A stretch of 30,241 nt of DNA from Candidatus Altiarchaeota archaeon. GTDB lineage: Archaea > Altiarchaeota > Altiarchaeia > IMC4 > QMZM01. The notes under the pieces were generated by a model that was not told the DNA's origin, made no database searches, and saw only the letters and a program-made list of their open reading frames with translations. The stretch is from assembly GCA_016931955.1 (NCBI GenBank), contig JAFGDV010000006.1, forward strand, positions 1 to 30,241. The letters run 5' to 3'. The stretch's first letter is position 1; each line of letters opens with the position of its first letter. The translations under genes were made by a program, and so were the position numbers. This document shows positions 134 to 30,151 of the stretch, piece by piece.

Positions 134-436
134 ATGAAAAAAGAGTCCCTCCTGTTCTTGGTGATTGCGTTCTCGCAGTTAGTTGCTGGAGCGGACATAA
201 TACCCTTCGGGTTGAAGGAGGCCTCGATAGAGGAATGGATCAACCTCTTCTATGCGATGACTGTCGCAGTCGCAGTATTGATGATGATATTCCACGGCAT
301 CAAATGGATCACAGCAGACAACGACGAAGACAGAAAACAGGCGAAGGCTGGAATCAAAAACGTCTTCTTGGGCTTGGTTTTTATACTTTTAGCTGCTGCA
401 TTGGTTGACATGGCATATACCAAGCCAAGCTACTAG
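134..436 (+). CDS. VirB2/TrbC-like (T4SS-type) pilin
   Basis: Signal peptide, then two hydrophobic helices joined by the loop GIKWITADNDEDRKQAKAGIKNVFLGLVFILLA, the pattern of TrbC/VirB2-type pilins. Confidence 0.8.
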   Translation: MKKESLLFLVIAFSQLVAGADIIPFGLKEASIEEWINLFYAMTVAVAVLMMIFHGIKWITADNDEDRKQAKAGIKNVFLGLVFILLAAALVDMAYTKPSY

Positions 437-987
437 ATGGGGCAGGAAACCTCTCCAACGTAGAGATAATTCACGAGAGCGAAGGAGATGATTACAAGAG
501 CCAAACCTACTAAGACATAATATACTCCCTTCTTTGCGTCATCCCGTCCCTGAAAGTCATCAGCAGTCATCCACTTGAGTCCGTTCACCATCAAGGAGAG
601 AACCGCCAACCCAGCCGCGATGGACTCAAGAATCAGGATGATCTCACAAAACTCCTTATTTGCGGCACAGTTTCCAGCGCAGGATTTTACACAGGCATCG
701 AACTCGTCTGAGCCAGATGTATACTTGCTGCATGTGCCAGCTGAGCAGCAGCTTTCACAGTCGCCTACGATGCAACCTGTCATGGAGCCGCATTCTGCCG
801 CGCATATTACTGGACAGTTGCCTCCAGAAGCTGTGTTGCACATGACCGTGGGCTCGCTTCCATCCTTGCAATTGTTGCCGTCACCTGCAGTGCATTTATA
901 TGATTCAAAGGTGGAATCAGCGTATCCAATCAATGTGATAGCTATTAGGATAATGAATGCTTTTCTTGCATTGGGTTTCATTTTCAC
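433..987 (-). CDS. Secreted Cys-rich domain fused to C-terminal VirB2/TrbC-like pilin hairpin
   Basis: Signal peptide; Cys-rich middle; hairpin GLKWMTADDFQGRDDAKKGVYYVLVGLALVII. Alternative ATG start at 981. Confidence 0.75.
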   Translation of the reverse strand: MKMKPNARKAFIILIAITLIGYADSTFESYKCTAGDGNNCKDGSEPTVMCNTASGGNCPVICAAECGSMTGCIVGDCESCCSAGTCSKYTSGSDEFDACVKSCAGNCAANKEFCEIILILESIAAGLAVLSLMVNGLKWMTADDFQGRDDAKKGVYYVLVGLALVIISFALVNYLYVGEVSCPI

Positions 988-1017
988 TTAATTAATTTGT
1001 TTTGTTTGACTTAATAA

Positions 1018-2214
1018 TCAGCATGTGAACGACCCTGTAAAGAAGTAATTAGCTAATGATGCCGCTGTTATGATCAGTATCAAACCGACGAAGACGTATG
1101 CTATGCCCCTTTTCGCATCCTGTCGGCCCTCTATGTCATCAGACAGCATCCACTTCATGCCATGAAACATGATAAGCAAGATGGAAATGCCGGCAGCCAC
1201 TCCGTAGATGATGTAGAGGACGTTGCATAATTCCTCGTTGGCTCTGCAGACTCCCATGCAGTTTTCCATGCATACTTTTTTTTCTTCATTCCCGTAGGCG
1301 TACATTGAGACCTTATTACACCACAAGGGGCTATTGCAGCAGTTCTCACAGTCTGTACTGCATGTTGCCTCCCTGCCGCACTTAGAAGCGCATTGATACT
1401 TGCAGTCTACTGTGTTGCTGCATTTGACCTCAGGCTCCGCCCCATTTGAGCACTTGTAGTGCAACCCCATGCAGATGAAGTCGTCGTAAACGCAGGCTGC
1501 TGGAGGCCCCGCGTCGCATTTCATGGCGCATGCCTCCACAAGTGTGCACGAGCACTCTGCAGCTGATTCATCGTATTTGCATTCAACCAGGCAGGGCACG
1601 TTAGGATTGACTTGGATGCTGTCATCACACGTTAGACCCCCGTATGTCTGCCCGTACTCTAAACACGCTATGCCCTCGTATTCGCCGCAGCATCCTGGCG
1701 GAGTCACGAATAGGTGGGGATCGATACCTCCAAAGGGGCAAACATTTGTTGAATCTAGTGGGTCGTTAGAAAATCCAAGCTCGCATTCAAGGGATTCCAT
1801 TAGGGGGTTAGGGTTAGGTAAGGCGCCGATGATCGTGACTTTCGCCTCCCCTTTACCTGGGGGAGGGGGATTCTCGAGGCTGCACGCATCCCAGAGGCTC
1901 GGGACACTCGACAGCTTTATGGTTCCAGACTCGCCTGACTCAAGCCTCAACCAAAAGTCATTCGGCGAACGCTCCAATTCAAAATTATCCGCGTCGAATA
2001 GTACGGCTCTGTAGCAGCATTTCTCGGAACCTTCATTCGTAAACTTTACTGAGAATCTTATCTCATCCCCCCAATAGATTTCATGGGTTATCTCGACTTT
2101 GGTTTGGTCGATCTGGCATTTAGTTGGATCACAGCCTGCGTATGCGCTCTCAGCCAGAAAGATCGCCAAGAGGAGTACTGTAACCGCCTTGCTCAGGGAT
2201 TCCATCTTTAACAT
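1018..2214 (-). CDS. Signal peptide + Ig/CARDB-like segment + Cys-rich domain + VirB2/TrbC-like pilin hairpin
   Basis: Signal ends AESAYA; beta-rich GDEIRFSVKFTNEG...LESGESGTIKL; hairpin GMKWMLSDDIEGRQDAKRGIAYVFVGLILII. Confidence 0.75.
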   Translation of the reverse strand: MLKMESLSKAVTVLLLAIFLAESAYAGCDPTKCQIDQTKVEITHEIYWGDEIRFSVKFTNEGSEKCCYRAVLFDADNFELERSPNDFWLRLESGESGTIKLSSVPSLWDACSLENPPPPGKGEAKVTIIGALPNPNPLMESLECELGFSNDPLDSTNVCPFGGIDPHLFVTPPGCCGEYEGIACLEYGQTYGGLTCDDSIQVNPNVPCLVECKYDESAAECSCTLVEACAMKCDAGPPAACVYDDFICMGLHYKCSNGAEPEVKCSNTVDCKYQCASKCGREATCSTDCENCCNSPLWCNKVSMYAYGNEEKKVCMENCMGVCRANEELCNVLYIIYGVAAGISILLIMFHGMKWMLSDDIEGRQDAKRGIAYVFVGLILIITAASLANYFFTGSFTC

Positions 2215-2906
2215 ATTATGGTGTGGAGGAATATTAGTTCTACCAGCGTTGACGCAACGACTATGAGGATAAAGCCAGCAAGCACGTATTCCACTCCCTT
2301 TCTCGCATCCCTCCTCGCCTCAAGGTCTTCGCTGGTGATCCACCTGAATCCATGCAGTATCAGCATTATTATGCCTGCGAACATTGCCCCGTAACGCAGT
2401 AAATCGATGACGTTGCAAAACTGCCTGTTTGACTCGCAGACGCCGTAACAGGTGTGATAACACGCCTCCTCCGTCTTACTGCCTGCAGCATATATGCTGC
2501 ATACATCGGTTGCAGTGCACTGCTCGCAGTTATCTGTTAGCAGCGTCTTCCGGCCGCAGGCTGCTGCACACTCAAGCATGCAATCAGAGGAATCCGGTTC
2601 ACTCACCAACTTGGCAACGGAACACCTCACAGACGGTGTGCTGCCGTCCTTGCACATGTAGCTGCCGAAAGTCGCATAGGTTGTGCACATAAAGGGCCCA
2701 AAAGTGCAGTAGGCCCCGCCTGTTGGTCCGGGATATATCTCGCATCCGACCGCACAGTATTCTAGTATGGTAGTATCTGTGTCATCGACGACACATGCAT
2801 TGCTGGGGCTGCCGAAACACGGATCGCGACATTTCGTAGCAGAGACTGCTGAGTTCATGGATATGAAGAGGATGAAAGCCGCTAATATCCATGATTTATC
2901 ATTCAT
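2208..2906 (-). CDS. Secreted Cys-rich domain fused to VirB2/TrbC-like pilin hairpin
   Basis: Signal ends SAVSA; Cys-rich; hairpin GFRWITSEDLEARRDARKGVEYVLAGFILIVVA. Stop overlaps the next gene's start region. Confidence 0.75.
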   Translation of the reverse strand: MNDKSWILAAFILFISMNSAVSATKCRDPCFGSPSNACVVDDTDTTILEYCAVGCEIYPGPTGGAYCTFGPFMCTTYATFGSYMCKDGSTPSVRCSVAKLVSEPDSSDCMLECAAACGRKTLLTDNCEQCTATDVCSIYAAGSKTEEACYHTCYGVCESNRQFCNVIDLLRYGAMFAGIIMLILHGFRWITSEDLEARRDARKGVEYVLAGFILIVVASTLVELIFLHTIIC

Positions 2907-2988
2907 TTTATTAGAATTAGACTAAAGGGATATATAACCACAAAACTATATTTATTGTAGGCAGACCATTCTTTAAACGTGACAGAAT
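2907..2988. promoter_or_regulatory. Divergent archaeal-type promoter region
   Basis: 82-bp AT-rich gap. Minus-strand TTATATAT at about 2930-2937 lies about 25-30 nt upstream of ATG 2906. Further TATA-like runs on the plus strand at about 2947-2956 and 2972-2977. Confidence 0.5.
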
Positions 2989-5900
2989 ATGGTGAAAAAA
3001 TCCAGAGACCATAGGTTTATTCTCCTCATCTCTGTCATCCTCATACTGACAGTGCAAGCCAACTCCCAAAGCCCCCCCAGCTGTACTATGACATTGTCGG
3101 TAAGATTCGATCCTATTGATCCAGGCGAAGACAACGAGTTTAGTGTGCAATTAAATCCAGTCCCTGTATGCCGGGATAAGCCTGTGAGATTAGAGGTCAT
3201 CGATCCCAACGGGGTCAGACATCAATACTATGGAATCACCGACATTAGCGCCCGCATACCGCCGGCTGGTTACCTGAGTTACCTGAAGCAATTCGATAAC
3301 ATGCCTAACACGGATGTGAGCGGCAGATACTATGTGATCGCGACCCTATACACGGGTGACTGGGTTCAAGACGACTTCGCCGTTAACGTAATCTGCGATG
3401 AACAAGCGAAGGACGGTGGGGGCACATTGATAGCTGAACGCCAGATCACCATAGGCAGCATCCCAGAGACCGTGGCCTCAGATATCGTCGCATGCACCGA
3501 CCTGAATGCTAACTGTGGCTACCTTGACCTGGTCTTGGATAAGGACTGCGCTCAAACCGGCGGCAGCTTTCCAGGCGCAGATCTTAACGTAGGAACTACC
3601 GAGCCAAGCTCAACAGACCACATAACTATCTGCACTAAACCGCTCCCCTCCTCCGAGCTGGAGTACACCTCAATAGACGGCAACAAGTACACGCTCATCG
3701 GCATGGCTGCTGAAGACTCTGACTCGACCCATTACTGGATGGCTAAGACCGGAGACGATGAATGCATAATGGGGGACGTCACAAGATGCGAGTTGCTCAC
3801 TAAGAGGCTTTTCATAGACGAACCACTTTACAGGGACTACATAAGAGACACAGTAAACGGCTTGGCATATGTTAACCCCCCCTGTTCGGGCTTCTATGAG
3901 GCCGCAGTGGGCTGGCTGTATGACATCGACACCCCAAGGTACCACGACATCTTCGGGGATTTGACTGATTTCCTCTACTGCCATCAGTCCCCCTTGCCGT
4001 CATTTAAACTCATAAAAGAGTCGCAGTGGTGTCATCTGATAAACCTGGGATGGTATTCCGTCGTCAACCTGACCAACAAGGAGGGTGTCACAAACATCGT
4101 CAACGACAGCATAACAGCTGAGAACCGATGGAATAATCTCTCAGGCTACATCGTCTTAGGGCATGCATGCCCCATCTGGCGGGATGTTGATAATTTACCC
4201 GCAGGCCTCCAAACCTTTGACGCTACCGCTGGGGGTTACAATGTTCCATGCCAGCTTCCTGACAGCGAACCTTTTACGCCCCCGTGTTCGGCATCAATCC
4301 CCAACCAATGCATCTACGTGTGGACGTCCTCTTATGCGTGGGATGGATTGTTTGGGTACGAGAAAAGCTTTGATTACACGTTGACTAATGCGGCTGAGGT
4401 GGAGGTATTGATGGCTGACAGCAACACAGACACCCAGATCCCCGCCTTTGATGTGATAAAGGAGGAGGTGGAGTCTATAAGGTCGCGGGTGACGGTGACG
4501 CCTAATATGGTCGCATCAGACTGTGGCGCTGTAGCCCCCATAACTGATGTCTTTTATTATGATAATCCGCTCCTCCCAGGATACCGTTCCTGCGATGACC
4601 ACAAACTAGGTTACTATAGATTGTTCGACCAGGATACTGTGTGGACTAAGATCTTCGCCGTGACGCCGATGCTCGAAGACGAGCACTGGGCGTGGGACTG
4701 GGATTGGAGCAAGGCAAGCGGACCAGATGTTGACTCCACCATCTCAATATACATTGGAGGAGGCTGCAAGAGGACCAGCGCATTCTACTTCAACTATCCT
4801 GGAGCAAAATCTAAGTACTTCGACTCAGCCAGCGGCACCAATACGCCTATCGTAGACTACGTGGATGTCACAGTAGACGACGGAGTTAATCCACCAAAAA
4901 TCTACAGTCATGTACCTGGGAGGAATCTGCTGCCTTTCCCGCCTGCGGATGCTGTAGAAGATGAAATCACCGGGCTTCCCATACCGGCACGCACCCACCC
5001 ATATGAGGGCATAAGGTATTCCTTCTTCAAAATAGACCATGTTCTGCCGGAGGATGCCGCCTACCTCAAGATAGACGTGGAATACACGTGCGAGACTAAA
5101 CTGGAGCGGACTCAATCACCAGTCTGCGGAGGAGGCACTGAGACAATAGAGGACGAAAGCATCGTCTCAGACAGCTACACCATAAAGTTCCTCGACCACG
5201 ATAATCCAAGAGAGAACTGCAGATGGAACAATCCCCTGGAGTGGATGGTGATTGAAGGTACTTGGCAGGGAAGTTTAACACCTGAGCATCCCGGGAGGTT
5301 CTGGGACGCCGACCTCGAGAAGAACATATTCCACCTAGAGGAGGATTCTACTCAAAACAGGCGGATGGTCTCAGTGGAAGAGGTAGAGGAAGAAGGCAAG
5401 ATAATAGAGGCGTTGGTCAGGGGCGAGGCTTCAGGTGATCAAGCTGATATGATGGTTGGATTCTACAGCGACGCTGCCGCAAATAACTATTGGTACGTTG
5501 ACATAGCCCGAGACGGCGGTGTAGGCGGTCAGAGCATAGTAATAGGCAGATATGAAGCGCCGTCGAGCTGGCAAGATAAGGAGTATGAAATTTCCCCTGT
5601 TCAGCCCCCGGATGAGGAGAAATGGTATTGGGTCAAGGTCTTCCTTGACGGGGATGACATATATGCGAAGGCTTGGCTCTGCGATCCCCCGGATCCCTGG
5701 GAGTGCAGTAAAGATGAGCCAGCAGGCTGGATGATACAATACGAGATGCAGGCAGGTGACACTAAGTATGGCCACCACTGGGTTATCGGTACCGACATAG
5801 GGGATACTGGCGATGAGGAATTCTGGTTTGACACCGAACCCATGTGCGGGATAGACATCAGCGGCTACTTTACGCCACATGATACACCCTTAGGTTACGC

Positions 5901-7164
5901 AGTCATCACCGACGGATTCATAGACATAAATATTAAGCCGGACACCCTCAGCGGATTCAACGTCAGCTTTAGAAACACAAGCATCATATACGAGCAGACC
6001 GCGTATCCCGCTAAACACATACTGTACAAGAAGGGAAAACCAGAAATACCTCCTGAATATCCTGACATCTTTGAGTTCTACTACGAAGACAAATACGGCT
6101 ATGAGTCGGAAATATATGGTTTCAATGAATTATGCAATCTGCCTCCCTGCCCAGCGAATTGCCACTGTGAGGAGAACGACATATTCAAACCGGAATGCGA
6201 TAACGTCGACCGAACAAAGGGTTCATGGCATTACTACCCCGACGGCTGCATATGCGCCCCCAGCGAATGCTATCCTGACCCGTGCAGCTCCGACAGGACA
6301 TACCACGAATTTGAGGGCTTATACTATGACTTCGTTGACTTCAATGCAATGCGTCTTTCAAAGGAGGAGGAATACCTTCAGACGGTGATGGACGCCGACG
6401 TGGCGGATGGTGAGACCGCCTTTTGGATAGAGGGGAGAGATCTGAAGGCTGAACTGGATGTTGGAAAGATAAACTCCGCTGAGGGCAGATATCGGCTCTA
6501 TTTCTCTGGCACAAACGTCAAAGTAACGGACTTTAAAGACGACGCTCAGATCATAGTATCCACGCACTTCAGGAACTACACATACAAGCTCAAGGATGTT
6601 TTAAGGCCGAGGGGCAAGGCAGTCATCGCCTATACAGTGACTCCTCCTAAGGAGTTCATAAAAACAGGTGACATCGTCACCATAGATCTGGACCTAATAT
6701 GCGGCGCAACAACCATAAGCAACGCAGAAGTCGAAGTAATCATCCCAAACTATGAGGGCGAGCTTTTCGGCGTTAGATGGGAGAAGCCCAGGATCGAGTT
6801 AGAGGATATTGAGTTGGATTTCTGGGCTGGACCTGTTTTCATGCCCACCATTAAACCCGACTTCAGGGTTACAGGGGATAGATCCTATGTGACGACCGAC
6901 GGTACGGGACACGCAAGCTTCGGCCTTATGATGAAGCAGAAGGCTGCACATGTAATACTCTACTACGAAGGCGGTGATTTATGCAGTGAAGCCGAGGCCA
7001 GCTTCATCTTAGGGAGAGAGGACTTGTCATCCATAATAACGAGTGTTGACTTCATCCTATTGCTGATCATATTCATCCTCCTCATATTCTCGTACAGGTG
7101 GTTTAAGAGGGGCAGACTGGACTTCTATGAGATGTGGCAGGAGTTCAGAGGGGAGAAGGACTAG
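2989..7164 (+). CDS. Large exported, C-terminally membrane-anchored surface protein (1391 aa)
   Basis: Signal peptide (FILLISVILILTVQA); acidic, Cys/aromatic-rich beta-type sequence; possible ConA-like/lectin sandwich at about 5240-5840; C-terminal TM FILLLIIFILLIFSY followed by basic RWFKRGR. Confidence 0.75.
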   Translation: MVKKSRDHRFILLISVILILTVQANSQSPPSCTMTLSVRFDPIDPGEDNEFSVQLNPVPVCRDKPVRLEVIDPNGVRHQYYGITDISARIPPAGYLSYLKQFDNMPNTDVSGRYYVIATLYTGDWVQDDFAVNVICDEQAKDGGGTLIAERQITIGSIPETVASDIVACTDLNANCGYLDLVLDKDCAQTGGSFPGADLNVGTTEPSSTDHITICTKPLPSSELEYTSIDGNKYTLIGMAAEDSDSTHYWMAKTGDDECIMGDVTRCELLTKRLFIDEPLYRDYIRDTVNGLAYVNPPCSGFYEAAVGWLYDIDTPRYHDIFGDLTDFLYCHQSPLPSFKLIKESQWCHLINLGWYSVVNLTNKEGVTNIVNDSITAENRWNNLSGYIVLGHACPIWRDVDNLPAGLQTFDATAGGYNVPCQLPDSEPFTPPCSASIPNQCIYVWTSSYAWDGLFGYEKSFDYTLTNAAEVEVLMADSNTDTQIPAFDVIKEEVESIRSRVTVTPNMVASDCGAVAPITDVFYYDNPLLPGYRSCDDHKLGYYRLFDQDTVWTKIFAVTPMLEDEHWAWDWDWSKASGPDVDSTISIYIGGGCKRTSAFYFNYPGAKSKYFDSASGTNTPIVDYVDVTVDDGVNPPKIYSHVPGRNLLPFPPADAVEDEITGLPIPARTHPYEGIRYSFFKIDHVLPEDAAYLKIDVEYTCETKLERTQSPVCGGGTETIEDESIVSDSYTIKFLDHDNPRENCRWNNPLEWMVIEGTWQGSLTPEHPGRFWDADLEKNIFHLEEDSTQNRRMVSVEEVEEEGKIIEALVRGEASGDQADMMVGFYSDAAANNYWYVDIARDGGVGGQSIVIGRYEAPSSWQDKEYEISPVQPPDEEKWYWVKVFLDGDDIYAKAWLCDPPDPWECSKDEPAGWMIQYEMQAGDTKYGHHWVIGTDIGDTGDEEFWFDTEPMCGIDISGYFTPHDTPLGYAVITDGFIDINIKPDTLSGFNVSFRNTSIIYEQTAYPAKHILYKKGKPEIPPEYPDIFEFYYEDKYGYESEIYGFNELCNLPPCPANCHCEENDIFKPECDNVDRTKGSWHYYPDGCICAPSECYPDPCSSDRTYHEFEGLYYDFVDFNAMRLSKEEEYLQTVMDADVADGETAFWIEGRDLKAELDVGKINSAEGRYRLYFSGTNVKVTDFKDDAQIIVSTHFRNYTYKLKDVLRPRGKAVIAYTVTPPKEFIKTGDIVTIDLDLICGATTISNAEVEVIIPNYEGELFGVRWEKPRIELEDIELDFWAGPVFMPTIKPDFRVTGDRSYVTTDGTGHASFGLMMKQKAAHVILYYEGGDLCSEAEASFILGREDLSSIITSVDFILLLIIFILLIFSYRWFKRGRLDFYEMWQEFRGEKD

Positions 7165-8189: not shown

Positions 8190-8253
8190 CTTTATAACTT
8201 ACTATTTAGAGGTAAAATCTTTTTTTGGATTGAAAACAATAGTTTAATACAGG

Positions 8254-8926: not shown

Positions 8927-8932
8927 TTTAAG

Positions 8933-10762: not shown

Positions 10763-10767
10763 TTAAT

Positions 10768-21300: not shown

Positions 21301-21890
21301 TTCCAGTAAATACCGTAGGCGACTACGTGGTCACTTTTGCTGTCACGGATGCTGGGGGACGGACTTCCTCGGACAGCATCCTGATGAAGATAGTAAGCAA
21401 CGTCCCGAAGATAAAAACTGATTACGCCGATGCTAATTTCGGCTATGACACCATCGCTAGCTGCTGGAAGGCGCTTTGGCTGGCTGAGGACGAGACCATA
21501 ATAAAGTTCAAGGTAGAACCAGTCAACAACCCTTTCAATAATCTGAAAGTCGACGCGAAGGTCGTGGAGACAGGAGACTGTAAGTGGCTCAAGTGCTGTA
21601 AAGCATTTGACAACGAGTTCTACACTTCAACCTTAGGTCCTGTGCCACTTGGTAGTGACAAAGAATTCATTTTTAATAACTTCTGCGTTAGGGTCAAGAA
21701 GCTGGAGATACTGATTGACGGCGACTATTCAGTTGGCGGGGATGAGTGGACGTTCTGCGCCTGCTGCGACGCCGAGAATCCCTCTGATAGATGCCCCGGC
21801 AACTACGACGATGTGCCACCACATGATTTCCATGAATGCAAGGTAGTGCTTGGACGTTGCTCTAACACGGACTGTAGTGCGATACCATAA
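18369..21890 (+). CDS. Asp/Cys-rich surface adhesin: TSP3-like and metal-binding repeats, internal VirB2-like hairpin, PKD-like domains
   Basis: Signal ends VNA; DTDGDGVPDASDNCP..PNPGQ (thrombospondin type 3-like); multiple DC[ND]D...P...E-x-C-x-GID-x-DCDG repeats; hairpin at about 20568-20777; SGGSPPYVYVWDFGD and GRYTVRITVTDSAG (PKD-like). Confidence 0.8.
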   Translation: MKKTLLLLSSFLLILLVLNTVNAADTDGDGVPDASDNCPSDPNPGQDDLDEDDVGDVCDCDADGDGVDADEPIKGCFGTDCNDFNKDVVSKITCYVDCDDDNFGDPAVSTTQCKQWCTQIILPIICLNNDWVPNDDDCDDDPLACGAYCYPGGTEDTCNDWDENCNGMADDDPPDGDGDGHTICDGDCNDGDGTVWDTIDCYPDCDGDHQGNQFSPATTACVLKCSDLPLTCNGFVYVDNKLDCDDSNGNTFFNAPESCDGIDNNCPNDGGYGLCDEGCDDDDDDYCDWTTTFVAHALNACGLGTCPGGNDNLCRCNKAGDCKDNDNKVFPQAIASEGDTAYCGVDSDGDGILDCCDGIDNDCDGRTDEGCPMPYPSLQVNNSLNVVIIPYQAMQWCDLSYWSGSAMVTKCYYHIGGDADFKDAGDYKVAIDWDVEPVYKTGSFIVTINHDTQQQSCDCFYPDDCMGLSCWLPGSALNPDWNMPGLEKFCCGDDENEIYVGGTDGTFACCDNKKEDGITSLGGEECVIHGECQNRLVGPNEDGSPGLCNTVDDDCDGIVDENCMCDSSKTNCDQDLDCPTYLCNDTYGNTKSCWKVGGDADPVGANACCGSMTSSPGFPNTPGEYYIWNPCDGSDACCDQAGECVLGGVCMGFVKVPGPEPACDFIDNDCDCLVDEDFDVDGDGFPSCAGDCDDFDIHRFPGNPEICGDGIDQDCDGIDPICGSPDEITLGNLCRLVYDTSYLLVYIAAAITVLLLVIGGLTLIGSEDVEAAAKAKSNIKNTVIGLIIVFALLGAGHMLEPECVYLPGTGYQPPFYYGEPPPLSVVISTPTDMQFFAPSELVTYNAVISGGSPPYVYVWDFGDESPTVWGSITTSGPCGGETYKYDVKGKGRYTVRITVTDSAGRKAWDEVDVLIDMVLAEIDKPPNGFIGIVDEPVDFEASIYGGELPYAAWSYGWYTDAGAFPGGTLEDLPGWSGFPVNTVGDYVVTFAVTDAGGRTSSDSILMKIVSNVPKIKTDYADANFGYDTIASCWKALWLAEDETIIKFKVEPVNNPFNNLKVDAKVVETGDCKWLKCCKAFDNEFYTSTLGPVPLGSDKEFIFNNFCVRVKKLEILIDGDYSVGGDEWTFCACCDAENPSDRCPGNYDDVPPHDFHECKVVLGRCSNTDCSAIP

Positions 21891-21985: not shown

Positions 21986-23029
21986 ATGGAATCCAGTAAA
22001 ACAAAGATTGCAGCGATAGCGTTGATTGTTTTTTTGCTTAGCTGTATTGCTCTCCCACAGGAGGAAGACCCCGGCTCAAGCGGCTTGATACTAAGCAAAC
22101 TATTGCAGATACCTGAGCATTTCTTTCTCTATGTGGTGGAGGAGATACTCAAGGCTACCATGAATGCCGTGGTGGATCTCTTGAAGACGATGATCCTCTG
22201 GAATCCTAACCCAGACGATATTAAACCCATGGTAGATGACTTCATAGAGATTCTCATCCCAGTTTATGTGATAATAATCATCGTCTTGGGGATCTACATA
22301 ATCTTTGTATCGATTTCGCCTTCGGGGAGGGCTAAGGCTAAGAGCATGTTCTGGAAGACACTATTGAGTATGATGTTGGTCTCCATATCGCTGGAGATAT
22401 TCAAGATACTCTTAGCCATCTCCGACGCCCTAAGTAACAGGATGCTTGCAGGGGTCGTGACGACGAGGCTCCCCCAGTTTATGATGACGATGGCTATGAA
22501 TCCACACAATCTCTTCTTCCTCTACTTGAATCTCGTCTTCTTCCTCCTGTCGGCGCTTATTGTCATAGCGCTCAGATACATCCTTGTTTTGACGCTCTGC
22601 GCCCTGTTCCCTTTCACGCTGTTCCTGTATTTCTTCGAGTTCACGAAAGAGATAGGCTCCAAACTCCTCAGGTATACATTGATGGCCATATACACTCAGG
22701 TAGTTCAGGCGCTGATGCTGGCTATAACAGTGATATCGATGAATTCATTGAGGACGGGCAGCACCGGCGGAGAGAATATCGTCTACGCGTTCCTCTTCAT
22801 TGCAGGCTCTCTCATGATAGTCTTAGCTCCCTTGATGATGATGGGGATCATGAAGTGGATCGGAGGGGCATTGGCGGGAGCTGGCATGGTCGTCTCGTTC
22901 ATAAACCCCGCACTCGGCGGCATAATGGTGGCTGCTGGCGGGATAGCTGCCGGCATGGGTCCAGGAGCCTTGATCGCTGGTGGAACAGCTACCGGGCTTG
23001 GCTGGGCCTATAGGAAAGGCGGAACATAA
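21986..23029 (+). CDS. VirB6/TrbL-like polytopic membrane protein, paralogue 1
   Basis: GAGGAG RBS; WNP motif; hairpin SPSGRAKAKSMFWK; core RYILVLTLCALFPFTLFLYFF...YTQVVQA; Gly-rich tail. Confidence 0.6.
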   Translation: MESSKTKIAAIALIVFLLSCIALPQEEDPGSSGLILSKLLQIPEHFFLYVVEEILKATMNAVVDLLKTMILWNPNPDDIKPMVDDFIEILIPVYVIIIIVLGIYIIFVSISPSGRAKAKSMFWKTLLSMMLVSISLEIFKILLAISDALSNRMLAGVVTTRLPQFMMTMAMNPHNLFFLYLNLVFFLLSALIVIALRYILVLTLCALFPFTLFLYFFEFTKEIGSKLLRYTLMAIYTQVVQALMLAITVISMNSLRTGSTGGENIVYAFLFIAGSLMIVLAPLMMMGIMKWIGGALAGAGMVVSFINPALGGIMVAAGGIAAGMGPGALIAGGTATGLGWAYRKGGT

Positions 23030-23105
23030 GGAGCATTATCCAAGATCACATCGATGTAGATAACTCACTGGATTGAAAAAAATGCGGAAGCTTGGAGTAT
23101 TTGAT

Positions 23106-26100
23106 ATGAGAGTTCTCGCTGTCGCAATCCTCTTATTGATTATCAGCGGTACCACAGTAGGAGTTCAAGTATGCTCATACGGCAGCGAGACACATGGATG
23201 CACATGGAATCCACTCACGTGGCCGGGCTGCTGGGTTCAGATACTGATGGACATGGGCAACTGCGTCATGATGTTCTTCATCTCCAAGATGGGTGACTTC
23301 ATCTTGATGAACCCTGAGATAAGCGTGTTCGATCCTTTTATCAAAGACATCATCTCCCTTCTGTTCCCAATATACGTGATAGCCATAGCCGTTACCGGAG
23401 TATATGTGATCTTTCTGTCCACTGAACCAGAGCATAGGGCGCGGGCGAAATTGATGCTGATTAGGTTGATAATGGGCATGGCCATGGTAACGGTTTCAAT
23501 GAGCATCTATCAGTTGCTCCTCAACCTCGCTCATGCAATAGCCCAACAAATCCTCGCCAGCCAGGGAGTGACAGCCGGCGGAGGAGGCGGTCTCGCCATA
23601 CTGAGCATCCTGATAGTTGTGAGCGTTGTATTCTTTTACATATCCGCCTGGCTTCTTCCAGTGCTTGCCATAATAGCCCTCATATCCATCGTATTCAGGT
23701 ACTTCATGGTATCCCTTATGGCTGTCCTCTTCCCTTTAACGCTTTTTTTCTACTTCTTCGAGTTCACGAAGGGTATTGGTAGGAACCTGATGAAGTACAC
23801 GATGATGGCTGTCTTCACGCAACCGGTTCAGGCCCTGATGATGGCCATAATGTTGGTCGGCCTCCATAATGTGGAAGCCAGCGGCGGCGGTATTATGGCG
23901 CTCCTTATCGGTTTGGGTGGATTGATCATGATCATCGCCGCCCCATTGTTTATGCTGGGTTTGATGAAGTGGATCGCTGGAACAGTAGCTGGTGCCGGCA
24001 TGATGTTGGCCTTCAAGAGACCTCTTTTTGGCGCTGCACTGGTTATTACTGGCGGAATGGGCACAGGCATGGGCCCAGAAGCCTTCGTAGCGGGTGGCTC
24101 GGCTTGGATCCTAGGTCACCAATACCAGAAACATGGACCAGACAGGGAACACGGAGTATATAATCGCAGAAAGAGTCGCATCAAAAGGGCGACTAAATGG
24201 ATCGCGGGGAGAAAAACCGTCCAGAGGGGTATTAAAGCGTTCAAGAGGACTAGAGCTGGTATGAAGGTAACATCCGGTATGAAGACTCTCAGGTCTAATG
24301 TGGACGCCGCCGGCGACAGCCTCTACAAGTTCAAGACAAAGGTCAAGGCTGGCTGGGTGAGGCATAAGAGAGCGATCGGCTGTTCGATATTCATTCCAGG
24401 CTACTGGATCTACGCTGCCGGCAAAAGCAGGATGGGTGCTTCCATAAAAGCGACCTTAGCGAATAAGAGGTATGCTGCAACCATCACAGCCGTCAAAAAC
24501 GCCACTACTTCAGCGGATGTGATGAACAACGTGCGCGATTTTGGCGGTAAAGACTCCGCAAGGGAACTGGAGAGCACACTCCCCAACAAGGATAAATTAG
24601 TCAAAGACATCGCAGACGCTATTGAAGCCACCGTACAGGCTCGGGGGGGTAGAGCGCCACGCTCATACTATGAGGCCCAAGCGAGGGGTATCGTTAATGG
24701 ATACATGGATACCCTCGACGCCAGGATTATTAGGGATGAGCTTAGGGCGGTGGGCGTGGACAGGAACACTATAGGCTCGATCTTTAAGGGTAACCGTCCA
24801 GTGAACCTGAATCAATTCAAGAGGGATGCTGAGTGGGTCACAGGGAGGGATAAGGCTGTGAAATACGACATCAAGGCGGCGAAGACCTTCAAGGAACTTG
24901 AAGAGATAAATGAAAAATACGGTATCTGGAAGGATAAAGAGTTAGAAGAGATAAGAGAAAAAGCAGCTAAAGGACAGAAAAAGTTGGACTCTGAGGAGAC
25001 AGTCAAGGAAAGAAGAGAAAAAGCAGCTAAAGGAAAGAGAAAGTTGGACTTTAAGGAGACAGTCGAGGAAAGCAGGGAATATGCATTAGAGCATGTGGAA
25101 GAAGAAGTTAGAAGGCAAGTAGAGGATAAGTTCTGCATGTCGGAGAAGGAATTAGACAAAAAAGCTGAGAAGTTGATGAAGGATCACGGAATCACCAAGG
25201 ATGAGGCAAAGGCACATGTAATGAATGAGTTCAATGAAACAGTTGAAAAGAACGTTGAGGAACTGATGAAAAAACCCGAGATGAGGGAGAGGGTGGAGGA
25301 GGAATTCCTGAAATGCATGAAGAAATTGCCGGAGTATCAGGAAGTGGAGAGGTATGTGGAACGTGAGTTGCGCAGGAGCCGGAGGCTGCCTCCTAATGCG
25401 TCCGAAGCAGACGTGAGGAAGGCCGTGGACGCCGAGATGACGAAGATGCTGGATAAGGAGTTGGATGTGATAAAACAAGAAAAAACAGTCGCCGCACAGA
25501 GGGGTATGAGTGGGGGTGATGCTGAGAAGTTCAGACTAAGGGACAAACACGGTGAACTTCGTAAGGCCTTTGACGGCTCCATCGAGGATCTGCCGCTAAG
25601 CATAGACAACCGAAGGGAGGTGATTATGACCTCCAAAGCGAACATGGCTAAGAAGGCTATTGAAACCGCCGGAACAGCTGACGAGATCAATGCTGTTTTG
25701 AAGAGGAACCGTATTCTGCAAAGTGAGTTGGAGGAATCATGCATGAAGGCCTACGGTGTTTCCAGGGCAGACGCACAGGACCAGATGAGACAGTTCTTAG
25801 ACACCCATAAGAGGAGCGCTGAGTTGGCTTTGGAAAACAGAAGGGATAGTCTACTGAAGCGGGAGGGAGCGATTGATGGGATACGTCGGGGAGTTAAGTT
25901 GATCGGTCTGTCGCTCACACCTGCTGGTTGGATCATAACAGCGAAGATCATCGCCGAGGGCAGGAAACCCTTCGCCAGAGGCCTTCAGCGGACTGGCTTA
26001 GCCGTTAGAACCCGGATGGAAGAATCATACAGGGGGAGGCGGATGCTGTCTAGGTGGGATGCAGGCAAACGCCGTGCCGGGGCGAAGTTGGCAGGGGCGA

Positions 26101-29100
26101 AGATAAAATCCACGAAGATGATGAAGGCGATAAGAACGCGCAGGCTGGAGAAGGGATTATACAAGGAGTTTATGTCTCTGGGAGCTAATAACACGTCAAG
26201 TGCTTGGTTATCGACGCGCTTAACTGATACGTATCGAAGAACAAATGATCTAAGCGGAATTAAAACATCCCTGGAGGGTTGGTATAGGAACAAGTACCCA
26301 AATATGCCAATTGACGAAGTGAACAGGAAAGTATCCGACTTCATCAACAGGTATGACCCGGACCGGGCGAGAGGTTCGGTACTCTCTAAAATGGATACCT
26401 ACTTCTATGAGATAGGTGGTAAGGAGTTGCAAACAGCTCTAGCAAATAGGTTTGAGGTCTTGGATGTTTCTTCCGACCCGAAGAACGCAGCAAGAAACGT
26501 GGTTAAAAAATATCGTGAAACCGGGAATGTGAGCGAAATTGAAGGGGAACTGAGAAAAGCTTACATTAGTAAATACCCGAATATGCCAATTGATGAAGTG
26601 AACAGGAACGTATCCGACTTCATTAAGAGCATTAGCGTAAAGGATACGTATAAGCCCGAGCTTAAGAAGGTGAGTCTCCTCACCGGTGAAAGGGAGGACA
26701 TAAGGAGGACCCGTGCTTGGAAGGCCGCATACCACAGTGGGTTGTCGCTTATAGTACCTTTCTATCCTATCGCTCTGGCTCATGCGGCTATTACAGGAGG
26801 GGAACTACGATCGATAGCGCTTTATTCAGCCGAATGGATGGCGGCGTCGAAGGCATGGAAGAAGTCAAAGGAAGCAAAAGAGAAAACATTTGAATTCTTC
26901 AAGCAAAGCAGGCCGGGTATAGCGATAGGGGAAGCGGCTGAGATATATGCTGAAATAGGCAGGGACGTAGCTGATGCTGGCAGGAGGGGGGTTGCTGCAG
27001 TGGGGAGAGTGCCCAAGGCCGTGAGTACTGGTGTCAGGGAAACGACAACTGAGCGTTTGAAGGAGATGCGCACACGCAGGCTGGAGAAGGAATTAGCCAA
27101 AGAGTTCAAAGGAATGACCAGAGTTAATCCAGATAGATTAGCACACAACTTAGTTGAAGAGTATCGCAGAACAAATGATCTAACAAAAGCTAAAAAAGAG
27201 TTGGGTAGCTGGTATCGGCGATCACACTGGATCCAACATGGAACTCCGATATCGATCTATGAAGCCGATATTAAAGCCGCCAGATTCCTTGGGGTGCATG
27301 ACCCTGAGATAAGGGAGCCTCTTAGGGCCAAATGGAAGGAGGGTCTGGTAAGGAGAGACCTGAACCTTATGGAGAAGGAACTGGCGTCGGAGTTCACGAA
27401 TCGAGGCGTTCCTGATGCAGACAAGATGGCAGGAGAGTTAGTCAAAGACTACGGTAAATCCAACGACCTGTGGCAGATCACCCAGGCATTGAAGAGCCAC
27501 GGCGCCAAAAACAGGATAAGCTACTTCAAGGAGAGATACAGTCCAGAGAAGCTCGGAGAACCATTACATAAGAGGCCGGGCAGCTCATTCAAGCGTACGG
27601 CAGAGAGGATCGCATCAAGGGAGGAAGAAGCCCTAAAGAGCAGGAGGCTTAGTTCGATGAATAGTGGACTGGATGATGAGTTCAATAGATTACAAGTTCC
27701 TGCAACAGACAACTCTGTACAGGAGATCAAAAAATTGGTCGATAACTACGGAACTGATACAACAGACACAAATTTCACCAAGGTCAGAGACAGACTGGTT
27801 GAATTTTACAGGAACAGGGGGAGTTCTTTCGATGATGCTGGGGCGAAGTCTTATGAAATACTCAGAGGCTATAGTCCTGATGATCTCAGTAAGCCTGGTT
27901 TTGTGGATCTCAGGGGTCGGGCTCAGTGGGTCAGAGAGCATCGAAGACAAATTGGGGTCTCGCTTGTTGCGGCACCGGTTTACGCCCCCTATCTAGCCAG
28001 TCGCGGTGTGTATGCTGGACTGAGCCGTGCAAAAACAATGTCGACGCTGAGGGATATAGACAACATAAAGGTCACTGAAGCCTATAGATACAAGAAACTC
28101 CGGGATGCTATGGTGGGCTCTGGTGTCCCCGAGGCGGAAGCCAGGGTGCTTATCGACGACCACATGCATAATAAGAATGAGGAGATCAGGGCCACTCCCC
28201 CGGGCACGCCACGTAAGAGTGACTTAGAGTACCACGATAGCCTCCAGAGGGAGGCGAAGGCTCTTGTGGTGGCTGATAGGACCATGGGTAGCAGATACCG
28301 TAAGCTGACAAAAGAATTCTTTAAGCCCTTCCAGCACAATAAAACACTGGATGAAGTCATTGCAAGGGGGGGATTGTACAGTGAACAAGGTATGGAAGAT
28401 CCTAAACTGATCGATATACGAGACCGTGCTGTAGCCGACATAAACCGCGGAGCAGACCATGAGCAGATTATCTTAAGGGCGAATAGAGAAGTCGATGACC
28501 ACCTAATCGAGTCCGGCAGCTTTAACAAGTATCTGAAGGACAACATCAGGAGAAAATACGGCATACTCGGCAGCGAAATAGACAAAATCAACAGCCACCT
28601 AATGGACAGCAGGAGGGACAAGATCACAGAAGTTAGGAGACAGAGGAGCACGATTGCTGAGCCTCCAGTACACGCGAGGGATAAGGTAAACGCCCAAGTC
28701 CTCGTGGACGCTCACCGATCAGTTCAGGAGATCGCGTCAGTTGAAGCCGTTAATACGATGAAACCCTCAGTGCAAGTACAATGCATCGAATTCTTCGGAG
28801 GGGGAGACAAGGAAGTGAGAGGAGTGCGCCTGCTAACGGAGGCGGAGAAGAGAGACATCATTTTCGGGCTTGACTTGGGCAGCAACCTTCACGCGAGGAT
28901 GCTCCTCGAGGACTACATGGGCATCGGACCCAGACCAAGTGAGTTCTATCACGGAATAGGACCAGAGACCAAAGAGGAGAGAGAGAAGGAAAGGGAGAGA
29001 GAAGAGGGGTCACCCCTATATGCTGCCGCTACAGTGAAGACCGCTGAACTCTTCGGCCAGATATCCGGTGGCATTGAAGAGCTTAAGAAGCCCTCCAAAA

Positions 29101-29120
29101 AAGGAGGGGAGGAAAAATGA
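23106..29120 (+). CDS. Extended VirB6/TrbL-like protein with very long charged, repeat-containing tail, paralogue 2
   Basis: First roughly 340 aa align by eye with the flanking paralogues (MNP, HRARAK, RYFMVSLMAVLFPLTLFFYFF, FTQPVQA, MKWI..GMGP). GGAG at 23094-23097 favours ATG 23106 over TTG 23073. Confidence 0.6.
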   Translation: MRVLAVAILLLIISGTTVGVQVCSYGSETHGCTWNPLTWPGCWVQILMDMGNCVMMFFISKMGDFILMNPEISVFDPFIKDIISLLFPIYVIAIAVTGVYVIFLSTEPEHRARAKLMLIRLIMGMAMVTVSMSIYQLLLNLAHAIAQQILASQGVTAGGGGGLAILSILIVVSVVFFYISAWLLPVLAIIALISIVFRYFMVSLMAVLFPLTLFFYFFEFTKGIGRNLMKYTMMAVFTQPVQALMMAIMLVGLHNVEASGGGIMALLIGLGGLIMIIAAPLFMLGLMKWIAGTVAGAGMMLAFKRPLFGAALVITGGMGTGMGPEAFVAGGSAWILGHQYQKHGPDREHGVYNRRKSRIKRATKWIAGRKTVQRGIKAFKRTRAGMKVTSGMKTLRSNVDAAGDSLYKFKTKVKAGWVRHKRAIGCSIFIPGYWIYAAGKSRMGASIKATLANKRYAATITAVKNATTSADVMNNVRDFGGKDSARELESTLPNKDKLVKDIADAIEATVQARGGRAPRSYYEAQARGIVNGYMDTLDARIIRDELRAVGVDRNTIGSIFKGNRPVNLNQFKRDAEWVTGRDKAVKYDIKAAKTFKELEEINEKYGIWKDKELEEIREKAAKGQKKLDSEETVKERREKAAKGKRKLDFKETVEESREYALEHVEEEVRRQVEDKFCMSEKELDKKAEKLMKDHGITKDEAKAHVMNEFNETVEKNVEELMKKPEMRERVEEEFLKCMKKLPEYQEVERYVERELRRSRRLPPNASEADVRKAVDAEMTKMLDKELDVIKQEKTVAAQRGMSGGDAEKFRLRDKHGELRKAFDGSIEDLPLSIDNRREVIMTSKANMAKKAIETAGTADEINAVLKRNRILQSELEESCMKAYGVSRADAQDQMRQFLDTHKRSAELALENRRDSLLKREGAIDGIRRGVKLIGLSLTPAGWIITAKIIAEGRKPFARGLQRTGLAVRTRMEESYRGRRMLSRWDAGKRRAGAKLAGAKIKSTKMMKAIRTRRLEKGLYKEFMSLGANNTSSAWLSTRLTDTYRRTNDLSGIKTSLEGWYRNKYPNMPIDEVNRKVSDFINRYDPDRARGSVLSKMDTYFYEIGGKELQTALANRFEVLDVSSDPKNAARNVVKKYRETGNVSEIEGELRKAYISKYPNMPIDEVNRNVSDFIKSISVKDTYKPELKKVSLLTGEREDIRRTRAWKAAYHSGLSLIVPFYPIALAHAAITGGELRSIALYSAEWMAASKAWKKSKEAKEKTFEFFKQSRPGIAIGEAAEIYAEIGRDVADAGRRGVAAVGRVPKAVSTGVRETTTERLKEMRTRRLEKELAKEFKGMTRVNPDRLAHNLVEEYRRTNDLTKAKKELGSWYRRSHWIQHGTPISIYEADIKAARFLGVHDPEIREPLRAKWKEGLVRRDLNLMEKELASEFTNRGVPDADKMAGELVKDYGKSNDLWQITQALKSHGAKNRISYFKERYSPEKLGEPLHKRPGSSFKRTAERIASREEEALKSRRLSSMNSGLDDEFNRLQVPATDNSVQEIKKLVDNYGTDTTDTNFTKVRDRLVEFYRNRGSSFDDAGAKSYEILRGYSPDDLSKPGFVDLRGRAQWVREHRRQIGVSLVAAPVYAPYLASRGVYAGLSRAKTMSTLRDIDNIKVTEAYRYKKLRDAMVGSGVPEAEARVLIDDHMHNKNEEIRATPPGTPRKSDLEYHDSLQREAKALVVADRTMGSRYRKLTKEFFKPFQHNKTLDEVIARGGLYSEQGMEDPKLIDIRDRAVADINRGADHEQIILRANREVDDHLIESGSFNKYLKDNIRRKYGILGSEIDKINSHLMDSRRDKITEVRRQRSTIAEPPVHARDKVNAQVLVDAHRSVQEIASVEAVNTMKPSVQVQCIEFFGGGDKEVRGVRLLTEAEKRDIIFGLDLGSNLHARMLLEDYMGIGPRPSEFYHGIGPETKEEREKEREREEGSPLYAAATVKTAELFGQISGGIEELKKPSKKGGEEK
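24953..25072 (+). repeat. 60-bp in-frame tandem duplication
   Basis: REKAAKGQKKLDSEETVKER / REKAAKGKRKLDFKETVEES; nucleotide copies are nearly identical. Confidence 0.9.
26292..26623 (+). repeat. 53-bp near-identical direct repeat, 279-bp period
   Basis: 26292-26344 and 26571-26623, both encoding KYPNMPIDEVNR[KN]VSDFI. Confidence 0.9.
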
Positions 29121-30151
29121 ATAGAAGGCTTAAAGTAATCGCAGCGACTGCATTGATGGTCCTGTTAGGTGCTGGAGAGGCGCTGGCTATCTGCAGATGG
29201 TATCACTGGTTCATTCCAGGCATATGGAACATCTGCATAATAGAAGCAATCATCAAGTGGTTTTTAAGTGGTCTAACTGGATTCGCCAATAACCTTAAAA
29301 AACAGATACTCTGGAATCCGGATCCAACAGCCGTTAACTCCTTTGTCCAAGCCTACCTTGACCTGATGCAGCCGATATTCACTCTATCAATAATTATAGT
29401 TGGCTTCTATCTGGTCTTCATGTCCGGCTCACCTGGGGGCAGGTCGAGGGCTAAGAGCATATTCTGGAAACTTATTCTGGCCATGATACTGACCTCTCTG
29501 TCAACGGAGATCTATGTAACATTGCTCAACATATCTGAGGGGATAAGCTCGAGGGCGATTGCCGGAGTCACTGACGGCTCAATCCATTTCAGTTTTCTAG
29601 AGAATCTTACTTTTGTCGCTGTGAAGATATTACTCAATTTCGTTTTCATACTGACAATGATATCCATTGGCATGAGACACGTGCTGGTGCTGGTAACTGC
29701 CGCATTGTTCCCGCTAACGATATTCCTCTACCTATTCGACCTGCCTTTGATCGGCGCCATGGGCAGGGAAACAGGTGCTAAACTGTTCAGGTGGACCATC
29801 GGCGTGATATTCGCCCAGACAATCCAAGCAATCATGCTCGCTATAACGGTTGTGTCATTCGGCAATGCACAGGAAGCAACTGGTTTAGGTACACTAGCAG
29901 CCGTCTTCGTTGGCATGGCCGGCCTTCTGATGATAGCCTGCGCTCCGTTGATCGCGATGGGGGTCCTGAAGTGGATAGGCGGCGCAATGATGACCCTCGG
30001 CATGGCGTTTTCTCTCACCGGTCATCCCTATTTAGGCTTCGCTGTAACAGCCATGGGCGGATTAATGATGGGTCAAGGCCCTGGCTCGGCCTTGATGGCT
30101 GCAGGGGGGGTTGCTTCGATGACTAAGGCTTTGAGCCTGTTTAAAACATAG
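29117..30151 (+). CDS. VirB6/TrbL-like polytopic membrane protein, paralogue 3
   Basis: ATGA overlap with upstream gene; ILWNP, SPGGRSRAKSIFWK, RHVLVLVTAALFPLTIFLYLF, FAQTIQA, LKWIGG..GQGP. Confidence 0.6.
   Translation: MNRRLKVIAATALMVLLGAGEALAICRWYHWFIPGIWNICIIEAIIKWFLSGLTGFANNLKKQILWNPDPTAVNSFVQAYLDLMQPIFTLSIIIVGFYLVFMSGSPGGRSRAKSIFWKLILAMILTSLSTEIYVTLLNISEGISSRAIAGVTDGSIHFSFLENLTFVAVKILLNFVFILTMISIGMRHVLVLVTAALFPLTIFLYLFDLPLIGAMGRETGAKLFRWTIGVIFAQTIQAIMLAITVVSFGNAQEATGLGTLAAVFVGMAGLLMIACAPLIAMGVLKWIGGAMMTLGMAFSLTGHPYLGFAVTAMGGLMMGQGPGSALMAAGGVASMTKALSLFKT

Follow-up and report, generated by a model that had tools for sequence, protein, structure and literature searches.

Both ends of a 30,241-nucleotide contig from an uncultured Altiarchaeales archaeon carry genuine relatives of two parts of bacterial conjugation machines, the VirB2 pilin and the VirB6 platform. 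Altiarchaeales are abundant, uncultivated subsurface archaea. The contig (JAFGDV010000006.1, or C36; G and C numbers below denote genomes and contigs) belongs to a genome of 1.55 Mb in 46 contigs that is 92% complete, and its entire length is the window analysed here. The closest homologues of the window proteins are hypothetical proteins of 'Candidatus Altiarchaeales archaeon'. The ends of the window are probably parts of a chromosomal apparatus that descends from a type IV secretion system (T4SS) and is conserved throughout the order Altiarchaeales. Its core in relatives is a PrgI/VirB3-like protein, a VirB4 ATPase, many VirB2-type hairpin proteins and many VirB6/TrbL-like polytopic proteins. 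The sections that follow set out what was observed: the homologies, an expansion of the paralogues, conservation throughout the order and, in relatives, linkage.

VirB2-type hairpin proteins

We called 21 long open reading frames (ORFs) in the window and scanned them against Pfam and NCBIfam. Five of the proteins had been read from the sequence alone as carrying a VirB2/TrbC-like hairpin, and all five match the pilin family PF18895 (hmmscan E-values from 6.5e-14 to 1.5e-5). The plain form is a 100-residue pilin without cysteine (134..436, forward strand; 52.2 bits, E 6.5e-14), with a signal peptide and two transmembrane (TM) helices around the loop DNDEDRKQAK. Its homologues (58–93% identity) bear PF18895 and the TrbC family PF04956. 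Three decorated pilins lie on the reverse strand: 433..987 (184 residues, 16 Cys including one at the C-terminus; 25.4 bits), 1018..2214 (398 residues, 34 Cys, hairpin at residues 331–391; 42.3 bits, and 28.8 bits for PF04956) and 2208..2906 (232 residues, 20 Cys, hairpin at residues 173–225; 29.8 bits; 7-nt overlap with the next gene). These three share a Cys-rich module of about 90 residues immediately before helix 1 and an invariant Cys after helix 2. The fifth hairpin is internal, at residues 738–791 of a surface protein of 1173 residues and 88 Cys (18369..21890, forward strand; 34.6 bits).

The pilin and TrbC/VirB2 profiles had been suggested as a check on the hairpins. Their curated cut-offs are 26.6 bits for PF18895 and 27.9 bits for PF04956, the latter exceeded by 1018..2214. 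With hmmscan, four of the five proteins exceed the PF18895 cut-off and 433..987 falls slightly below it; in a six-frame search of the genome all five exceed it, 433..987 at 27.8 bits. The same six-frame search was positive in only 1 of 14 control genomes. A hydropathy scan and alignments give all five proteins the same plan: a signal-like helix at the N-terminus, then a pair of hydrophobic helices separated by some 20 residues and linked by a short charged loop.

Four of the five hairpins are fused to Cys-rich ectodomains. The 1173-residue protein runs from Asp-rich, Ca-binding-like repeats and MopE-type motifs (Pfam Cu-binding_MopE, E 1.2e-8) through the hairpin to PKD domains (E 6.3e-7) and a Cys-rich tail, and both flanks of its hairpin are predicted to lie outside the membrane. 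Cysteine makes up 7–9% of the ectodomains. Its count is even in all five Cys-rich secreted proteins of the window (16, 34, 20 and 88, and 36 in a 1391-residue protein described below), which would fit full disulfide pairing. An AlphaFold model of the 184-residue pilin has a helical hairpin (residues 94–141 and 145–176), with an overall predicted local distance difference test score (pLDDT) of only 58.9, too poor for a fold search. A comparison of the 398-residue pilin with metagenome contigs gave 25 pattern matches, none of which was confirmed as a related locus.

The genome holds a sixth hairpin protein outside the window (C9, 26575–27123, reverse strand; 182 residues, PF18895 40.1 bits). Its gene neighbours encode a MoxR-type AAA_3 ATPase, a DUF58/vWA protein and a DUF7502 protein, with no T4SS genes among them.

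VirB6-like proteins

Three tandem genes on the forward strand follow the 1173-residue protein, and the sequence-only reading took them to be VirB6-like. Paralogue a (21986..23029) has 347 residues. Paralogue b (23082..29120) joins a membrane domain of about 330 residues to a charged tail of about 1,680 and matches the A1 model at E 2.7e-124; its ORF opens at 23073/23082, and from the ATG at 23082 onward it is identical to P0023, a protein in the database. Paralogue c (29117..30151) has 344 residues, overlaps the preceding gene by 4 nt and matches A1 at E 1.3e-126. The three are paralogues indeed (36% identical), each with at least six predicted TM helices, and have 21 invariant columns in common with 19 database homologues.

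Their kinship with VirB6 comes from fold, from family-level profile matches and from gene context in relatives. An AlphaFold model of paralogue a (pLDDT 82.3), searched with VIA-align, ranked TrwI/VirB6 of R388 (7o3v_F) first of 48,161 representative solved chains, at 221 residues, a root-mean-square deviation of 5.5 Å and a Z of 9.3, which by the aligner's own caveat is modest for an all-helical protein. Legionella DotA ranked second (Z 8.0). The top Foldseek match was also TrwI/VirB6 (E 0.033, prob 0.89), and VirB6 chains filled five of the top six rows.

At the level of profiles, 65 family members were scanned at E<=0.01. TrbL was matched by 9 of them (best E 3.1e-6) and T4SS_pilin by 16; the 18 other families matched were chiefly TPR or TPR-like repeats, plus single weak matches. 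A search of genomes with the TrbL profile (PF04610) gave 13 matches, spread over 12 of 41 relatives; at least 9 of them fall within frames of the VirB6-like family, and one relative's match is above the cut-off (26.2 against 25.9 bits). The window's own genome gave none. The proposed TrbL check thus failed for the three window proteins and held for part of their family, and structural similarity to VirB6 was found. Because the window proteins do not reach the PF04610 cut-off and the matches are at family level only, the three are filed as divergent VirB6-like proteins and not as members of PF04610. In addition, hhalign pairs the family's first hairpin with the pilin profile (E 3.6e-4, probability 37%); Beltran et al. 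(PMC9905601) report the same hairpin-pilin relationship for CedA and CedA1.

The tail of paralogue b is 35% K/R/D/E and 0.3% Cys, and is 25–37% identical to the tails of relatives' proteins. Since it is rich in charge and poor in Cys, it is probably cytoplasmic. The tail has no Pfam domain, no usable ESM Atlas match and, by self-BLAST at E<=1e-3, no internal repeats. A complex prediction for paralogue a with the mature 100-residue pilin scored 0.00, which is no verdict and speaks neither for nor against binding.

Conservation in the order and linkage to VirB4

The VirB6-like family is present in 47 of 49 Altiarchaeales genomes and in none of 12 genomes from the other two families of the class. 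Matching genomes have 1–18 copies each, mostly in tandem arrays, and the relatives' genes often carry long C-terminal extensions, with open frames of up to 2,432 residues. An exhaustive search with the family profile returned 660 cluster representatives at E<=0.001. PF18895 occurs in 40 of 41 relatives, with 2–30 copies each in frames of about 80 to >1,100 residues. Expansion of the VirB2 and VirB6 paralogues, noted earlier for the window, is therefore confirmed, and expansion and decoration are traits of the order and not specific to the window.

A VirB4 motor accompanies these genes in most relatives. A frame of about 760–800 residues exceeds the AAA_10 cut-off in 36 of 41, and the VirB4 N-domain is also found in 17 of 41. 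The VirB4 of G011:C6 (799 residues) matches the Thermoanaerobacter VirB4 structure 4ag5 at E 2.4e-38 and TrwK at E 3.5e-5. The gene immediately upstream of VirB4 matches the PrgI (VirB3-like) family in all three relatives' loci scanned, above the cut-off in two of them. Linkage counts were taken from listed rows and are lower bounds: a VirB6-like copy lies no more than about 11 kb from VirB4 in at least 14 of the 36 VirB4-bearing relatives, and a PF18895 gene lies within 5 kb of it in at least 20 of the 36. One 20-kb locus, G002:C38, contains a Cys-rich protein, four VirB6-like genes, a decorated pilin, PrgI and VirB4. Between its VirB6-like array and decorated pilin (14067–14797) sit a MazE-like antitoxin and a PIN-domain protein.

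A VirD4-type coupling protein was not found in 41 genomes searched with PF02534. This profile does match in 38 of the 41; the matches listed cover only profile positions 7–106, the P-loop stretch, and nearly all of them lie in HerA-like frames of about 500–600 residues. The copy in this genome is a HerA-type ATPase on C2. That none was found across 41 genomes argues against a conjugative plasmid.

For the window itself, the earlier statement that relaxase, VirB4 and coupling protein are missing stands for its 21 ORFs in the Pfam scan. Neither these ORFs nor 20 ORFs from relatives' loci include a relaxase, integrase or replication gene; relaxases were not searched genome-wide. The earlier preference for a chromosomal system over a conjugative plasmid likewise agrees with the synteny across genera, the order-wide occurrence and the coupling protein result.

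Synteny, contig ends and the motor gene

Synteny with related genomes, suggested as a further check, was found across genera (G011) and also with the same-genus genome G001. On the left, window positions 134–8189 are syntenic gene for gene with G011:C6 10493–18371 at 48–70% identity. The block comprises the small pilin, the three decorated pilins (433–987 at 70%, 1018–2214 at 50% and 2208–2906 at 59% identity), a large anchored protein and an A24 peptidase. Going outward from the block, G011 continues upstream with a 283-residue Cys-rich ORF, two further Cys-rich proteins (one with a hairpin), two small ORFs, VirB4 and PrgI. PrgI-VirB4 thus lies 7–10 kb upstream of the syntenic block in G011, and because of this synteny the motor gene of the present genome is predicted to lie 7–10 kb to the left of base 1.

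The window starts inside a gene. Frame 0 of the forward strand is open from base 1 to a stop at about 126, and this 3' end of a Cys-rich ORF (1..126) is 67% identical to the end of the 283-residue Cys-rich ORF in front of the small pilin of G011:C6. Bases 1–114 recur in reverse orientation at the end of another contig (C41, 8516–8629; 96.5% identity). A contig broken inside a Cys-rich gene that has a copy at the end of C41 bears the signature of a repeat-induced assembly break. Housekeeping genes follow the C41 copy, and the last ORF before the contig end has 171 residues; the copy is either a second paralogue or a fork in the assembly graph.

The sequence-only reading proposed a look for a cognate ATPase in flanking sequence, and named as refuting it the lack of such an ATPase anywhere in the genome together with no conserved linkage; this refutation is borne out only in half. 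VirB4 is absent from this assembly; in relatives PrgI-VirB4 is present (VirB4 in 36 of 41) and linked to these genes, and synteny puts it just off the contig. In this genome CagE_TrbE_VirB has no match, and AAA_10, DUF87 and P-loop_TraG match only three HerA-type ATPases of about 470–525 residues. These were considered as motors and rejected, for they stand among genes of DNA repair and housekeeping; their neighbours are a Hef-type helicase and chorismate mutase, endonuclease V and SpoU, and endonuclease dU and Phe-tRNA synthetase, respectively. The ABC-transporter ATPase in the window (17603–18316) was also rejected as a motor, being an ordinary transporter subunit.

One short ORF of 207 residues elsewhere in the genome (C46, 395–1018, reverse strand) resembles PrgI and the VirB4 N-domain. 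Its N-terminus scores 21.6 bits against PrgI/VirB3, below the cut-off, and its residues 113–190 are 31–33% identical over 78 residues to residues 120–197 of relatives' VirB4. Upstream of it stand the EF-2, EF-1alpha and S10 genes, and tRNA-Glu follows it. Judged from these similarities, it may be a relic of a PrgI-VirB4 pair.

On the right, the order ABC transporter, Cys-rich hairpin protein and VirB6-like array is kept in G001:C5 and G011:C1, where orthologues of the 1173-residue protein (1029 and 1168 residues) precede the arrays. Both arrays go on to another VirB6-like gene that ends in TPR repeats. In G001:C5 (17016 to beyond 40000) a 191-residue ORF follows, and after it a frame that stays open for at least 7,661 residues, with N-terminal TPR repeats and a DUF553 transglutaminase-like domain. 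These genes beyond the array (the TPR-ended VirB6-like gene, the 191-residue ORF and the frame of at least 7,661 residues) have no counterpart in the present assembly. The window ends in a dispersed repeat of about 80 nt with a GTGTGG/CCACAC hairpin (30162–30241). Copies at 98–100% stand at the ends of C37, C39, C25, C21 and C18, and parts of 33–46 nt occur in 11 more contigs, mostly near contig ends; this repeat appears to break the assembly.

Proposed mechanism and alternative explanations

How these proteins sit in the membrane, whether they form a pilus and what they do we infer from sequence. The Sec pathway would insert the hairpin proteins into the membrane via their cleavable signal peptides. 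VirB6-like platforms and VirB4 would then pull the hairpins out of the membrane and build them up into a pilus or stalk that contains lipid, in the manner of conjugative and Ced/Ted pili. Domains fused before helix 1 or after helix 2 would face the outside of the filament or membrane, and the Cys-rich, MopE-type and PKD ectodomains would consequently be displayed on the cell surface. The charged tail of the long VirB6-like paralogue would probably serve as a cytoplasmic docking arm. Judging by the genes, the system likely serves cell-cell or cell-surface contact and may also take part in DNA exchange of the Ced/Ted kind.

Several findings weigh against such an apparatus. The system is known here from genes alone; neither pilus, transcript nor protein was observed, and a look for sequencing runs listed one of DNA, perhaps from the source sample, and none of RNA. 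The three VirB6-like proteins of the window have no Pfam match at E<=10 and none in NCBIfam, their family profile gives noise only against PDB sequences, so that no solved VirB6 is reached by sequence, and the fold score carries the caveat given above. VirB4 was not found in the 92%-complete assembly by four profile families, tblastn or protein search. The upstream genes of G011 (PrgI, VirB4 and the 218- and 141-residue neighbours) are all unmatched in this assembly at E<=1e-5, the same-genus genome G001 (73% complete) is also without VirB4, and the 207-residue ORF on C46 could mean that the motor was lost. Across the order, hairpin and VirB6-like copies far exceed VirB4 in number and many are distant from it; G026, a genome in one contig, has VirB4 at 468 kb and VirB6-like arrays at 87–91 kb and 1,247–1,249 kb. 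VKOR and DsbA-type disulfide enzymes that might serve the Cys-rich domains were searched for in the genome and none was found, which also speaks against full pairing of the cysteines.

Much of this would suit a system that works without a motor, in which VirB4 was lost in the genus, the hairpin is a membrane anchor, the VirB6-like proteins are scaffolds or channels and there is no pilus. The failure to find VirB4 in either genome of the genus, the relic-like ORF between the S10 gene and tRNA-Glu, the surplus of copies far from VirB4 and the sixth hairpin gene beside MoxR, DUF58 and DUF7502 instead of T4SS genes all favour it. However, the contig breaks in a repeated Cys-rich gene, at the very place where the PrgI-VirB4 block is to be expected from synteny. 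G001 lacks the entire left block, pilins included, a pattern more in keeping with a gap in the assembly than with loss of VirB4 in particular, and the relic match is weak and not at the syntenic position. We regard motor-independent use as unlikely, and hold the same view of a genuine loss of the motor in this genus. Slightly less probable again is a system mainly for DNA import of the Ced/Ted kind, taking up DNA of neighbouring cells for repair or exchange, with the decorated hairpin proteins as accessory recognition pilins. The relatives' parts (VirB2, VirB6 and VirB4, with the coupling protein not found) match those given for Ced and Ted in PMC9905601, the genes are chromosomal and conserved across the lineage like Ced, and the pilin loop is charged. 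Against it, up to 30 pilins and 18 VirB6-like proteins with large ectodomains compare with one to two pilins and one VirB6-like protein in Ced/Ted, and these copy numbers and ectodomains point towards surface display or adhesion. DNA-processing genes are also absent from the window and from the 20 scanned ORFs of relatives' loci.

Two further explanations have very little in their favour. Conjugative elements typically carry VirB2, VirB6 and VirB4, the G002:C38 locus contains a MazE-PIN pair and repeats flank the contig, all of which could suggest an integrated conjugative element or plasmid fragment with these genes as mobile-element cargo. We consider this highly improbable: the VirB6-like family occurs in nearly every genome of the order (47/49), gene order is kept across genera amid housekeeping and transport genes, the matches to the coupling protein profile (38/41 genomes) reflect merely the P-loop of HerA-like frames, and neither the window ORFs nor the relatives' locus ORFs hold an integrase, relaxase or replication gene within the scope given above. 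It is harder still to credit that the matches are false positives, with hydrophobic helix pairs matching the pilin profile by composition and the polytopic proteins unrelated to VirB6. The pilin profile is indeed short and hydrophobic, the 100-residue pilin weakly matches seven other families (six of them membrane-protein families), and fold matches between helical bundles are error-prone. Yet the pilin matches reach E 6.5e-14 and include a conserved charged loop, a single control genome of 14 is positive, the genes adjoin bona fide VirB4 and PrgI in relatives, and two independent aligners rank VirB6 first (with DotA second in VIA-align).

A conserved T4SS-descended apparatus with its motor gene beyond the contig end remains the reading we prefer. 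A bolder version of it is doubtful. In that version a conjugation-pilus module was turned into a general surface-building system, the VirB2 hairpin being a portable handle on dozens of ectodomain proteins. VirB6-like platforms in large number, a few or more of them bearing giant arms in the cytoplasm, would sort these proteins or polymerise them into decorated filaments of mixed composition, or else carry them through the periplasm of this double-membraned archaeon. The products may include bases for the archaeon's unusual appendages, and in this genus the system would possibly be free of VirB4.

Other genes in the window

A large secreted protein stands between the pilins and the middle of the window (2989..7164, forward strand; 1391 residues, 36 Cys), divergent from the pilin operon. 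It has a signal-like N-terminus and a C-terminal TM anchor (residues 1349–1367). It has no Pfam or NCBIfam match, and the ESM Atlas gave weak Ig-like leads only (score 0.84). The syntenic orthologue in G011:C6 is 48% identical. This protein is a candidate surface or adhesin partner of the system, a membership proposed solely from conserved adjacency.

The sequence-only reading treated the whole span 134–30151 as a single system, and in this it went too far, because about 10 kb in the middle is unrelated. The genes at 7161–18316 encode a prepilin peptidase, a His-Xaa-Ser (Hxs) radical-SAM (S-adenosylmethionine) cluster, a beta-propeller protein and a PhnS-type ABC transporter, and are not part of the T4SS-like system. 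The archaeal A24 prepilin peptidase (7161–8189, reverse strand; Peptidase_A24 32.7 bits) is 66% identical to its counterpart in G011, which holds the same place after the 1391-residue protein. A role as the processing enzyme of the hairpin pilins is unsupported: it is probably not that enzyme, because the hairpin proteins carry Sec-type signal peptides of the signal peptidase I type (AxA-like sites) and not class III signals.

The Hxs peptide-maturation cluster (8254–10762 and 13688–14956, with genes on both strands) was recognised by NCBIfam and Pfam matches. It includes HxsD (47.3 bits), an HxsD-like protein, HxsB (394.9 bits, above the cut-off) and a 121-residue HxsA3-like Cys-rich peptide; its second radical-SAM enzyme has only a weak match to HxsC. 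G011:C1 shows synteny with those genes of the cluster that lie on the forward strand. The ABC-transporter ATPase gene at 17603–18316 keeps its position upstream of the VirB6-like array in both G001 and G011.

Comparison with known systems

We think it fairly probable, with function read from the genes, that the system is a chromosomal T4SS derivative of either the Ced/Ted or the monoderm (MPF-FATA) type. Ced (in Sulfolobales and Aeropyrum) and Ted (in Thermoproteales) are described in PMC9905601 as consisting of a CedA1/TedC pilin, a VirB6-like CedA/TedA and a VirB4-like CedB/TedB. Measured against that description, the Altiarchaeal system is likewise a 'domesticated', chromosomal and lineage-wide T4SS derivative. 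Its part list is similar too, with a VirB2-like hairpin pilin, a VirB6-like protein, VirB4 (in relatives) and a coupling protein that was not found. The pilin has a Sec-type signal peptide like TedC, and, as described for CedA/CedA1, the VirB6-like protein has a first hairpin similar to the pilin. The differences are of scale and of architecture. Altiarchaeales have up to 30 hairpin and 18 VirB6-like genes per genome, whereas one to two pilins and one VirB6-like protein are reported for Ced/Ted. The Altiarchaeal hairpins bear fused ectodomains of 80 to >700 residues (Cys-rich, MopE-type and PKD), the VirB6-like proteins have tails of up to about 2,000 residues, and relatives have a PrgI/VirB3-like partner. 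The Altiarchaeal host, unlike those of Ced and Ted, is reported to have a double membrane (PMC4460559).

The T4SSs of Patescibacteria (CPR) and monoderm MPF-FATA systems, as presented in PMC12102498, combine PrgI/VirB3, VirB4, PrgH/VirB6 and PF18895/PF04956 pilins. PF18895 pilins, a PrgI-family gene just before VirB4 in relatives, and a chromosomal location widespread in the lineage are points of likeness with that account, and the relatives' VirB4 is far nearer to the monoderm-type 4ag5 than to TrwK (E 2.4e-38 against 3.5e-5). The archaeal host, the massive paralogue expansion, the ectodomain fusions and a VirB6-like family beyond the Pfam TrbL model set the Altiarchaeal system apart, and in contrast to MPF-FATA conjugation no coupling protein was found in the 41 Altiarchaeal genomes. 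The best fold match of paralogue a is TrwI/VirB6 of R388, known from structures with TrwL/VirB2 (PDB 7o3v, 8rt9 and 8rtd), with 221 of 261 residues aligned. Identity is nevertheless only 12–18% with no match at the sequence level, and VirB5, VirB7-10 and the outer-membrane core were not seen.

Tandem VirB6 paralogues, some with long extensions, or multiplied pilin genes are also known from Rickettsiales rvh and Bartonella Trw. Those are complete diderm T4SSs of host-associated bacteria, and the likeness, if drawn, is an analogy of gene amplification only.

A literature search found no paper that mentions both Altiarchaeota and VirB6; some papers mention Altiarchaeota and type IV secretion, and those of them that were read do not link the two, though annotations in supplementary files could exist. 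As far as the literature was searched, the system appears to be undescribed in print. It stands apart from its closest known counterparts by the decorated hairpins, the giant VirB6-like tails, the scale of the expansion and the divergent VirB6-like family.

According to PMC4460559, cells of the Altiarchaeales possess a double membrane as well as unique appendages, whose assembly machinery is given there as unknown. The genes described here are candidates for two questions, how these archaea build and decorate their surface and how they make contact or exchange with neighbouring cells. Their VirB2 and VirB6 paralogue sets are the largest seen in this analysis, and a pilin hairpin has been reused in them as a fusion handle for large ectodomains. 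If the reading is true, Altiarchaeales would hold a third 'domesticated' archaeal T4SS lineage besides Ced and Ted.

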